A DNA stretch of 64,000 nucleotides from Dictyostelium discoideum (lineage: Eukaryota), in assembly GCA_000004695.1 (NCBI GenBank), contig CM000151.3, forward strand, positions 2,144,001-2,208,000, in the 5' to 3' direction. The position numbers and the translations under genes were made by a program. Each line of letters starts with the position of its first letter. The stretch's first letter is position 1. Below are positions 16,250 to 18,043 of the stretch, piece by piece. The notes beneath the pieces are model-generated. The model was not told the DNA's origin, made no database searches, and was given only the letters and a program-made list of their open reading frames with translations.

Positions 16250-18043
16250 TCATTGATTTTCGTTATCAATTGATTTACTATTACTCTTATCATTATTAGT
16301 ATTGTTATTACTATTATTGATATTATTATTATTATTATTATTATTATTATTATTATTATTATTATTATTATTATTAAAATCTACATTTTCATTTTCTTCA
16401 TTATTGTTTTCTTTATTATCAATGTTGTTACTGTTATTGTTTGTATTATTATTATTAGTATTATTATGATTATTATTATCATTACTTTTATTATTATTAG
16501 TATTATTATTGATATTATTATTAGTATTATTATTGTTGTTATTATTATTATTATTATGGTTATTATTATTGATATTATTATTATTGTTGTTGTTATTATT
16601 ATTATTATTATTATTATTATTATTATTATTATTATTATTATTATTATTATTATTATTATTATTATTATTATTATTATTATTATTATTATTATTATTATTA
16701 TTATTATAATCTACATTTAAATTTAAATTCTTATTTTTATTGTTAATATTGTTATTATTACAATCGATATTATCTAAATCCCAATCAATTGGTGATTGTT
16801 GAGATTGAATTAAAATATTATTAGCCGTACTAAAATGACGACAACCAAAAAAACCTTTTGAAACTGAAAATGGTGAAGGATGGGATGCTGTAAGAATTGT
16901 ATGGTGATTATCTTTATTTGAATTGTTATCACCACCTTTAATGAGATGTATTTTCTCTTGAGAATGTTTTCCCCATAAAAAGAAAATGATACCCTTTCTT
17001 TCGGTCGCGAGTATTGATAATGCTTGATCTGTAAATCTATCCCAACCACGATTTGCATGACTCTCTGATGAACCTTTTTTTATGGTTAAAGAGTTATTCA
17101 ATAATAGGACACCTTGTTGTGCCCACTTTTCTAAATTGCCATGAGTGGTTGCGTTACATACTCCACAATCATTTGACAATTCCTTATATATATTGGTTAA
17201 TGTGGCTGGTAATTGACTGGATATGGTTGTATCGACTGAATAGGCAAATCCATTGGCTTGATTGGAACTTGATGGTGGATCTTGTCCTAAAATAACAATT
17301 TTAACACTATCGAATGGTGTGGTATTAAAACATCTAAATATTTGATTAGTTGGTGGTGATATCATTATACCACTCTCTTTCTCTTGATCCAAATATTGCA
17401 TCAATGCTTTAAAATAATCTTTTTCAAATTCACCCTGTAACCTTGATCTCCAACCTTTTTCTAATAATGATTTTTTAATATTTTCACTAAAATTTTCATT
17501 TGTTGGTTCATTTATATTTATAAAATTATTTTCATTATTTAAATGTAATCTTTTATTATTGATGATATTATTATTAATATTTTGATCGATTGGTGATGTA
17601 AAACCATTAAATAATGGTGATGAAAATGTTGGTGATGTTTGCTCACTATCACCATGAGTTCTTTTCTTTTTACTACTATTATTTGGAGATTGTGTAAAAT
17701 TCATTTTTTGATAATTTTGTTGTTGTTGTTGTTGTTGGTGGTGTAATTGTTGTTGATGTTGGTGCTGTATTTGTTGTTGGTGTAATTGTTGTTGATGTTG
17801 ATGTTGTTGTTGTAAAAAAATTTGATGTTGTTGATATTGTTGAAGATATTGTTGTTGAAGTATATATTGTTGTTGTGGAGTTAAAATTTGATTATTATTA
17901 TGACTGATTATAATGTTATCTTTTGGGTTTAAAAATGGTGACTGTTGTTGAAAAAATGGATTATAATTATTAAAATTGTTATTAGTATTGTTATTATTGT
18001 TATTGTTATTATTATTTATTTGAAATGGATTATCATGTACCAT
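16250..18043 (-). CDS. uglA: Uracil-DNA glycosylase (family 1 UNG) with poly-N/poly-Q N- and C-terminal extensions, 597 aa
   Basis: The core aligns with human UNG. Matches include KIVILGQDP..., NIYKEL, GVLLLNNSLT, HANRGWDRFTD, FFLWGKHSQEK, TASHPSPFSVSKGFFGCRHFS and PIDWD. The flanking (ATT)n arrays at 16310-16400 and 16590-16705 encode poly-Asn. The symbol is recalled from Dictyostelium nomenclature and is not verified. Confidence 0.85.
   Translation of the reverse strand: MVHDNPFQINNNNNNNNNNTNNNFNNYNPFFQQQSPFLNPKDNIIISHNNNQILTPQQQYILQQQYLQQYQQHQIFLQQQHQHQQQLHQQQIQHQHQQQLHHQQQQQQQNYQKMNFTQSPNNSSKKKRTHGDSEQTSPTFSSPLFNGFTSPIDQNINNNIINNKRLHLNNENNFININEPTNENFSENIKKSLLEKGWRSRLQGEFEKDYFKALMQYLDQEKESGIMISPPTNQIFRCFNTTPFDSVKIVILGQDPPSSSNQANGFAYSVDTTISSQLPATLTNIYKELSNDCGVCNATTHGNLEKWAQQGVLLLNNSLTIKKGSSESHANRGWDRFTDQALSILATERKGIIFFLWGKHSQEKIHLIKGGDNNSNKDNHHTILTASHPSPFSVSKGFFGCRHFSTANNILIQSQQSPIDWDLDNIDCNNNNINNKNKNLNLNVDYNNNNNNNNNNNNNNNNNNNNNNNNNNNNNNNNNNNNNNNNNNNNINNNNHNNNNNNNNNNTNNNINNNTNNNKSNDNNNHNNTNNNNTNNNSNNIDNKENNNEENENVDFNNNNNNNNNNNNNNNNNNINNSNNNTNNDKSNSKSIDNENQ

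Follow-up and report, generated by a model that had tools for sequence, protein, structure and literature searches.

Replacement of the uracil-gating tyrosine in the uracil-DNA glycosylase of social amoebae

A uracil-DNA glycosylase gene with a substituted water-activating loop

The 64-kb stretch of Dictyostelium discoideum DNA analysed here (positions 2,144,001 to 2,208,000 of contig CM000151.3; henceforth, at its full length, the window) has a G+C content of 22.9%, dictyostelid in character, and carries on its minus strand a complete, single-exon open reading frame (ORF) for a protein of the uracil-DNA glycosylase (UNG) family. An earlier, sequence-only reading of the locus had assigned this protein to family 1, had described it as aligning tightly with human UNG, with the HPSPFS and LLLN motifs present, and had pointed out that the Tyr and His of the near-invariant GQDPYH motif are replaced by Pro and Ser (reported at 17247-17290).

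The family assignment is borne out by domain, equivalog and structure comparisons. The catalytic domain matches Pfam PF03167, and a phmmer search against the Protein Data Bank (PDB) returns E-values of 1.5e-60 for the Coxiella enzyme and 1e-54 for human UNG. The protein scores beyond the curated cutoffs of the NCBIfam ung equivalogs NF003589, NF003592 and TIGR00628 (267 against a cutoff of 223 for NF003589, 222 bits against 185.75 for TIGR00628), and an AlphaFold2 (AF2) model compared with human and E. coli UNG gives Foldseek target-normalised TM scores of 0.89-0.91 with a probability of 1.00. With 45.6% identity to the human catalytic domain over 215 aligned residues, the talk of a tight alignment was fair, and HPSPFS and LLLN are indeed found, at 16865-16882 and 17096-17107. 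Identity to Bacteroidota UNGs is 50-52%. Like the canonical human and E. coli enzymes, the window protein thus combines the UNG fold with the five-motif layout of the family.

Where it departs from them is motif A, the water-activating loop. Codons L252-G265 (17249-17290) read LGQDPPSSSNQANG, gap-free against GQDPYHGPNQAHG, so that the residues of the loop are L-G-Q-D-P-P-S-S-S-N-Q-A-N-G; the ORF runs on without interruption on either side (...VKIVILGQDPPSSSNQANGFAYSV...). In the phmmer comparison with PDB chains the same segment aligns, again gap-free, to vilgqdpyhgpnqahgl(a/c)fsv of the Coxiella, Vibrio, E. coli and human enzymes (E 1.5e-60 to 1e-54). We mapped residues in human UNG1 numbering, having confirmed that the human sequence is identical to that of the PDB chains. 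Human Q144 and D145 correspond to Q254 and D255 of the window protein, Y147 to Pro257 (codon CCA, 17273-17275), H148, G149 and P150 to S258, S259 and S260, and H154 to N264; further along, F158 corresponds to Y268, N204 to N316, H268 to H388 and L272 to F392. Where family-1 enzymes have the Tyr and His of GQDPY-H, the window protein therefore has Pro257-Ser258. The Tyr in question lies in van der Waals contact with C5 of uracil and keeps out thymine as well as purines (PMC5449639).

Could the substitution be an artefact, with PSSS appearing in place of YHGP through an error in sequencing or assembly, a frameshift, a missed intron or a faulty alignment? The suspicion stems only from the gene's being AT-rich and repeat-rich; we found no evidence for it, and we consider the chance negligible. 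Misalignment and frameshift are hard to square with a gap-free PDB alignment within a continuous ORF. The column is otherwise invariant, a Tyr codon (TAY) lies at least two substitutions away from CCA, and two independent assemblies encode the same Pro, with CCA in D. purpureum and CCC in Polysphondylium violaceum, so that Pro-Pro is specified by different synonymous codons (loop codons CCA CCA TCT TCA TCA and CCA CCC TCG GGA, respectively). The alignment with other dictyostelids that the sequence-only reading had proposed as a check returned not PYH but PPSSS (D. purpureum), PPAGS (EukProt P0002) and PPSG (P. violaceum). An artefact is thus ruled out, and the Tyr-to-Pro and His-to-Ser replacement is real.

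Table 1. Features of the UNG gene and of its neighbours in the window.
Feature	Position	Strand	Basis
UNG-family ORF, complete, single exon, 597 aa + stop	16250..18043	minus	ORF list; collinear orthologs
Disordered N-terminus of poly-Asn/poly-Gln, aa 1-191; contains short islands of conservation	17471..18043	minus	ortholog comparison
(TTG)n repeat, CAA on the coding strand, encoding poly-Gln in the N-terminus	17717-17813		
KKKR, nuclear-localisation-like motif	17660-17671	minus	ortholog comparison
Repeated (T/S)SPF motifs	17609-17638	minus	ortholog comparison
NKR(L/V/F) island	17543-17557	minus	ortholog comparison
Family-1 uracil-DNA glycosylase catalytic domain, aa 192-425	16769..17470	minus	Pfam, PDB phmmer, NCBIfam, Foldseek
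Motif A, water-activating loop, L252-GQDPPSSSNQANG-265	17249..17290	minus	codons, PDB alignment, human mapping
Asp255 (GAT) = human Asp145, general base activating water; kept	17279..17281	minus	mapping
Pro257-Ser258 (CCA TCA) for human Tyr147-His148; C5 steric gate missing	17270..17275	minus	human mapping
Phe266-Ala267-Tyr268 = human Leu156-Cys157-Phe158	17240..17248	minus	mapping
Pro279-Ala280-Thr281 = human Pro167-Pro168-Ser169, Pro-rich DNA-pinching loop; altered	17201..17209	minus	mapping
LLLN-N; Asn316 = human Asn204, reads uracil N3/O4, kept; Asn317 = human Ala205	17093..17107	minus	mapping
Motif B/intercalation loop HPSPFS; His388 = human His268, Phe392 = human Leu272 wedge; kept	16865..16882	minus	mapping
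C-terminal poly-Asn tail, aa 426-597, from (AAT)n tract	16253..16768	minus	ORF list
Counting-factor-associated protein (CfaA/B/C family), 205 aa	15393-16010	plus	
ANAPC8/Cdc23, 592 aa	18746-20524	minus	
Polyketide-synthase fragment (KS C-terminus + acyltransferase)	23678-24841	minus	

Elsewhere in the active site, much of what defines a UNG is present. The Asp of GQDP (G253-Q254-D255-P256 in the window protein), found in 204 of 204 canonical homologues, is kept, as are Asn204 (likewise 204/204), Ser270, a wedge residue and a stacking aromatic, Tyr268 being a conservative substitute for Phe158. Motif B reads H388-P-S-P-F392-S, with the commonest wedge residue (Phe in 136/204). The DNA-pinching loops give a mixed picture: the G-S loop, G358-K359, has the majority state among bacterial homologues (K in 148/204), and the Pro-rich loop is altered. 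Compared with canonical UNG, Pro stands for Tyr147, Ser for His148, Asn for both His154 and Ala205, PAT for PPS, Tyr for Phe158 and Phe for Leu156. Across the 204 canonical sequences, 82 columns are conserved to 93% or more. Among these, the dictyostelid sequences have in common Pro for Tyr147, Ser or Ala for His148, Ala or Ser for Pro168 and, in part, Thr for Ser169; these last two columns, Pro in 190/204 and Ser in 204/204 canonical homologues, read A/T, A/T and S/S in dictyostelids. Two less strictly conserved columns are also shared, His154 (Asn) and Ala205, the latter Ala in 186/204 canonical homologues and Asn or Ser in all dictyostelid sequences (Asn317 of the window protein, 17093-17095). 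Confined to the window protein are L156F, F158Y, which affects the base-stacking residue, and Ala249Ser: D. purpureum, P. violaceum and P0002 keep Leu156 and Phe158, residues present in 203 and 204 of the 204 comparison homologues, respectively.

Structure prediction singles out the same part of the domain. We ran AF2 on a 41-sequence alignment and, as a control, folded a canonical Bacteroidota homologue with the same alignment. Mean predicted local distance difference test (pLDDT) values were 82.5 for the window domain and 94.8 for the control. In the segment from motif A to the Pro-rich loop, successive ten-residue blocks of the window domain scored 62, 54 and 69, falling below 50 at Gly-Phe-Ala, compared with 92, 92 and 94 in the control. 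Such low values are, if only indirectly, consistent with a motif-A loop that is mobile or does not adopt the canonical conformation.

The catalytic domain is embedded in long Asn- and Gln-rich tails at both ends, instead of following the PCNA/RPA-binding N-terminus of human UNG2. The N-terminal tail contains islands, MVH(D/E), KKKR, (T/S)SPF repeats and NKR(L/V/F), that are common to the window protein, D. purpureum and P. violaceum, and that may include a nuclear-localisation signal and play a regulatory role. Most of the C-terminal tail stems from a period-3 (TTA)n array of 433 bp (16275-16707, identified with Tandem Repeats Finder; AAT on the coding strand), which yields ~140 residues of poly-Asn; its sequence is not conserved in D. 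purpureum. Spurious poly-Leu and poly-Ile ORFs, in other frames and on the opposite strand, overlap the trinucleotide arrays.

Distribution, selection and origin

How unusual is a UNG without this Tyr? Among non-dictyostelid close homologues Tyr occupies position 147 in 204/204 cases and is followed by His in 201/204. Widening the comparison to UNG-like proteins that represent clusters at 50% identity, with the motif segment as query, we find Tyr in 147 of 148, and the exception is the P. violaceum protein. All four dictyostelid sequences, in contrast, have Pro. The three other than the window protein are also its closest relatives in the databases: D. purpureum XP_003293984 (GQEPPSSSNQANG), EukProt P0002 (GQDPPAGSNQANG) and P. 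violaceum KAF2072478 (GQDPPSGNQANG, with a loop one residue shorter). Since Pro is common to all four, it should predate the split of P. violaceum from the lineage leading to the window species and D. purpureum. The amoebozoan outgroup Luapelamoeba hula has kept Tyr (GQDPYY).

We also scanned nucleotide data with a degenerate DNA pattern for G-Q-D-P-P-x4-Q-A-x-G-x2-[FY], covering 185,579 species of Bacteria and Archaea (one genome per species), the JGI metagenomes and the IMG/VR viral contigs. Note that the pattern misses other loop lengths, such as PPSG of P. violaceum. Within this scope no true GQDPP UNG was found: the 5 prokaryotic and 10 metagenome matches (there were 0 viral ones) are chance or out-of-frame matches, all of them in GC-rich or stop-interrupted sequence, with one stop-interrupted UNG-like fragment among them. 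As far as the sequences in the databases searched go, then, the Tyr-to-Pro change is confined to the social-amoeba group, and we did not find a description of this UNG variant in the searchable literature.

Three further sequences with unusual features came to light. The UNG-like fragment just mentioned, the only one of the 15 pattern matches to resemble UNG (L015:337-384 (-), metagenome contig Ga0209149_1205094, GC 45%), reads ...DGGQDPPHGKGQAGGLSFPL*, with Pro for Tyr and stops around it, and looks like a degraded motif-A fragment, either of a pseudogene or as an exon remnant. In the insect Plodia interpunctella, a 464-aa protein (XP_053608044.1; P0326) has two tandem UNG-like domains, the first reading GQDPYPGKNQANG and the second GQDPGKVEGFG, which lacks both the Tyr and the QA-G part and is hence another natural copy of the UNG fold without the gate Tyr. 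The L. hula protein (P0341, EukProt EP01087, 564 aa), in which His148 is replaced by Tyr, has a C-terminal extension with CCHC zinc-knuckle-like motifs (CFLCGETGHWASACP, CYKC).

Both orthologs for which we retrieved the gene have the architecture of the window gene, with an MVH(D/E) start, KKKR and repeated SPF motifs. The P. violaceum gene (L017:3001-4830 (+), AJWJ01000276.1) is an intact ORF of 609 aa starting MVHD; a ~70-residue Asn/Glu/Lys-rich insertion lies within its catalytic domain, between the WGK loop and HIILTASHPSPFS. The D. purpureum gene (L001:4085-5950 (+), GL871425.1), although annotated only as a 220-aa partial hypothetical protein, is an intact ORF of 621 aa starting MVHE, with 70% identity over the catalytic domain. 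It alone carries Asp145Glu (GAG, giving GQEP), His268Ser (TCA), Pro271Gln and Gly280Ser, and around motif B it reads SSPSQFS. Asp145 and His268 are the two residues to which UNG owes most of its catalytic power. The four columns are 100% conserved elsewhere, and still the protein scores beyond the NCBIfam 'ung' equivalog cutoffs.

To gauge selection we computed Nei-Gojobori (NG86) estimates over 222-230 aligned domain codons. The ratio of non-synonymous to synonymous rates (dN/dS) is 0.22 between the window and D. purpureum, 0.12 between the window and P. violaceum and 0.20 between D. purpureum and P. violaceum, values that are best regarded as upper-bound-like given that dS, at 1.0-2.4, is near saturation. 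If the D. purpureum gene had lost its catalytic residues under relaxed selection, we would have expected it to evolve faster. It does not: its branch dN is 0.105, compared with 0.123 for the window and 0.161 for P. violaceum, and a Tajima-type relative-rate count gives 17 changes unique to D. purpureum and 26 unique to the window. We therefore reject relaxed selection in D. purpureum. Low dN/dS, unraised branch dN and the counts of unique changes together indicate, at the level of sequence evolution, a gene that is under purifying selection and functional in the window species, D. purpureum and P. violaceum, and that is not decaying in D. purpureum. The D. purpureum ortholog becomes a candidate for a cellular UNG pseudoenzyme.

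Does the same apply to the clade as a whole? One might suppose that dictyostelid UNG is mainly non-catalytic, for instance reading or shielding uracil or abasic sites, or acting as a scaffold whose disordered tails mediate its recruitment, the fold being kept for DNA binding while some other glycosylase removes uracil. We think this unlikely, even though several observations point that way. In D. purpureum four otherwise invariant residues have gone from a protein with an intact 621-aa ORF, a dN/dS of ~0.2 and no acceleration; Tyr147 and His148 are missing and the Pro-rich loop is altered in all four dictyostelids; and AF2, confident in the active-site loops of the control, is not so in those of the window domain. 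By analogy, vaccinia D4 may serve as a precedent for a family-1 fold that functions without catalysis: it acts as a DNA-polymerase processivity subunit, a catalysis-independent role (PMC1936997, PMC4450493), and might be likened to the D. purpureum ortholog, although D4, as a viral protein, has diverged far from other family-1 members and is still classed as an active uracil-DNA glycosylase in the poxvirus literature, and nothing seen here points to a partner protein or a role in replication. Against a non-catalytic role, the window protein, P. violaceum and P0002 keep Asp145, Asn204, His268, Ser270 and the wedge after long divergence, which would be hard to explain if catalysis were dispensable. 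Nor need the D. purpureum protein be dead: a Glu might in principle take over as general base, and other uracil-DNA glycosylase families manage without the His.

A non-catalytic role would gain from a second UNG gene, and there is a hint of one. Dictyostelium 'Ung' has been said to carry a PBZ zinc finger, which binds poly(ADP-ribose) (PAR) (PMC5087659). In the window ORF we see a handful of Cys, none of them in a zinc-finger pattern, and a regular-expression search for CxYGxxCx(b)(b)xxxxHxxxFxH found no PBZ motif in the six frames of the 64-kb window or in the fetched homologues. A profile search with a chimera of PBZ and motif A returned only short bacterial and fish UNG fragments, and neither a PBZ-fused UNG nor a second UNG was found among the retrieved proteins. 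The statement in PMC5087659 would concern either a second UNG gene, located elsewhere, or a different gene model. That the window gene is a paralog, as the sequence-only reading suggested, is a conjecture.

Regarding the origin of the gene, the best non-dictyostelid matches all come from Bacteroidota and relatives (Arcticibacter, Pedobacter, Chitinophagaceae, Tenuifilum), with 50-56% identity compared to 44-46% for human UNG, and the window domain and Bacteroidota UNGs have local signatures in common, including EKESG and WGK. These matches raise the question of horizontal transfer from Bacteroidota, which the phylogeny neither supports nor speaks against: in a neighbour-joining tree of 22 taxa with 200 bootstraps the four dictyostelids are monophyletic in 200/200 replicates, and their sister group is Bacteroidota in 62/200 and Luapelamoeba in 55/200. 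Besides the neighbours in Table 1, the surroundings of the gene include a WD40 protein and an AAA ATPase. Local synteny is not conserved, in that the counting-factor, ANAPC8 and polyketide-synthase genes have no counterparts next to the UNG genes of D. purpureum and P. violaceum.

Possible catalytic function without the gate

What, then, might the window protein do? We tentatively favour the view that it is a glycosylase whose C5 gate is open or mobile: the change in the active site is conserved, and uracil would probably still be excised. This strikes us as quite possible rather than assured. Uracil flipping and cleavage are to be expected because every residue of the chemistry and base-recognition set is kept: Asp255 would serve as general base, His388 would stabilise the uracil leaving group, Asn316 would read N3/O4, Tyr268 would stack and Phe392 would wedge into the minor groove. 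Missing would be the packing of Tyr on uracil C5 and the adjacent His, and the change of the Pro-rich loop from PPS to PAT, along with Asn for Ala after the specificity Asn, would further reshape the site. The result would be a slower enzyme in which the C5 side of the pocket is more open or mobile, 5-substituted uracils (5-hydroxymethyl-U, 5-fluoro-U, possibly thymine) are excluded less strictly, and binding of the product, the apurinic/apyrimidinic (AP) site, is altered. That catalysis stayed under selection after the loss of Tyr is suggested by three of the four lineages, which keep Asp145, His268 and Asn204 at saturated dS (1.0-2.4) and with dN/dS of 0.12-0.22. Uracil-DNA glycosylase activity in D. 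discoideum extracts was reportedly described by the Deering laboratory in the 1980s, which would not identify the gene.

Known variants at this position provide some guidance as to what the loss of Tyr might entail. Human UNG Y147A excises thymine (PMC2853124; bioRxiv 10.1101/2024.01.01.573809) and, like the dictyostelid enzymes, has lost the bulky Tyr of the C5 gate from an otherwise intact UNG; as UNG2 Y156A the same change is used in thymine base editors. UNG2 A214T, equivalent to A205T, is among the mutations of a laboratory-evolved thymine-excising editor (bioRxiv 10.1101/2024.01.01.573809), and dictyostelids also have a polar residue at Ala205. Yet the human variant carries an artificial Ala, whereas Pro-Ser-Ser-Ser for Tyr-His-Gly-Pro alters the backbone as well as side-chain volume, and the dictyostelid change is natural and conserved under selection. 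In E. coli Ung, substitutions at the same position of the same family reduce activity 7-fold (Y66W) and ~170-fold (Y66H) while leaving the enzyme uracil-specific; Y66H still partly rescues an ung null, and Y66W shows altered binding of AP-DNA (PMC2853124). The position therefore tunes catalytic rate and AP-DNA or product binding, although these are laboratory aromatic and imidazole replacements and Pro is absent from the mutants described in PMC2853124.

A natural parallel in motif A is BdiUng (Blr0248) of Bradyrhizobium diazoefficiens, the one natural GQDPA enzyme to have been characterised, in which GQDP is likewise followed by a small residue, not Tyr. With GQDPA it has an enlarged C5 cavity and excises U, 5-hydroxymethyl-U (5-hmU) and xanthine, with no activity on T:G, and its authors tie the Ala to the broadened specificity (PMC5449639). 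However, BdiUng shares little sequence identity with family 1, its fold resembles that of family 4, and it lacks both motif B (HPSPLS) and the stacking Phe; it is also dimeric and resistant to Ugi. The window protein, with HPSPFS, an aromatic at 158 and 45-52% identity to UNGs, does not belong to this class.

How far might the relaxation of specificity go? Strong thymine excision is unlikely, since it would be toxic in a genome of ~77% A+T, and the case for any gain of thymine excision is made solely by analogy with the engineered human Y147A enzyme.

Several considerations weigh against an open-gated but active glycosylase. We found no biochemical data on the window protein in the searchable literature, including under Dictyostelium UNG and the gene name uglA. 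D. purpureum, with Asp145Glu, His268Ser, Pro271Gln and Gly280Ser and a non-synonymous rate that is not raised, indicates that a selected function can outlast the loss of canonical catalytic residues. With Pro-Pro, a backbone NH beside the catalytic Asp is gone, which may derange the water-activating loop, a possibility with which the low predicted confidence of the loop is consistent. Finally, BdiUng, lacking T:G activity (PMC5449639), shows that thymine excision cannot be predicted from a missing Tyr alone.

The opposite scenario is that nothing much has changed. The loop might have been re-packed, with the ring of Pro257, the Ser-rich turn and, in the window protein, Phe266 and Tyr268 still excluding C5 substituents, so that we would be looking at an ordinary UNG with a compensated, effectively neutral quirk. 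Intact chemistry and recognition residues, strong purifying selection and equivalog-level scores from automated family models are what one would expect of such an enzyme, and the window-only changes L156F and F158Y do add aromatic bulk or a hydroxyl beside the pocket. We nevertheless judge this improbable. No other family-1 sequence sampled departs from Tyr, and replacing it costs the E. coli enzyme 7- to 170-fold in activity. The possible compensators, F266 and Y268, do not occur in the three further Pro-bearing dictyostelids, four to five more near-invariant pocket and loop positions (H148, P168, S169, A205, H154) have changed together, and D. purpureum later went on to lose catalytic residues.

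Significance of a natural change at the gate

On the evidence of the sequences, the active-site loop of UNG has been remodelled in a eukaryotic clade, the dictyostelids, where the new form is conserved and under selection; one ortholog has further lost catalytic residues. The window protein belongs to a known enzyme family as a variant and does not represent a new kind of system. Should it turn out to work as an ordinary UNG, what remains is a curiosity of loop plasticity. The bolder claim is that the social-amoeba clade re-engineered its UNG, whose active site is otherwise among the most invariant known in DNA repair, either into a glycosylase accepting 5-substituted pyrimidines (5-hmU, 5-fU, even thymine) or into a pseudoenzyme that holds on to uracil-containing or abasic DNA but does not cut; we regard this as conceivable but on the doubtful side. 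Were it true, an altered glycosylase or pseudoenzyme might be relevant to the persistence of ~75-78% A+T in these genomes.

There is also a warning here for genome annotation: automated equivalog assignment names both the window and the D. purpureum protein uracil-DNA glycosylase despite missing defining or catalytic residues. Above all, Tyr147 is the textbook determinant of discrimination between uracil and thymine, and the residue that is mutated to make thymine base editors. A natural UNG lineage that does without it under purifying selection amounts to an evolutionary experiment on the share of this residue in specificity and rate, and dictyostelid UNGs may offer natural scaffolds with altered specificity.

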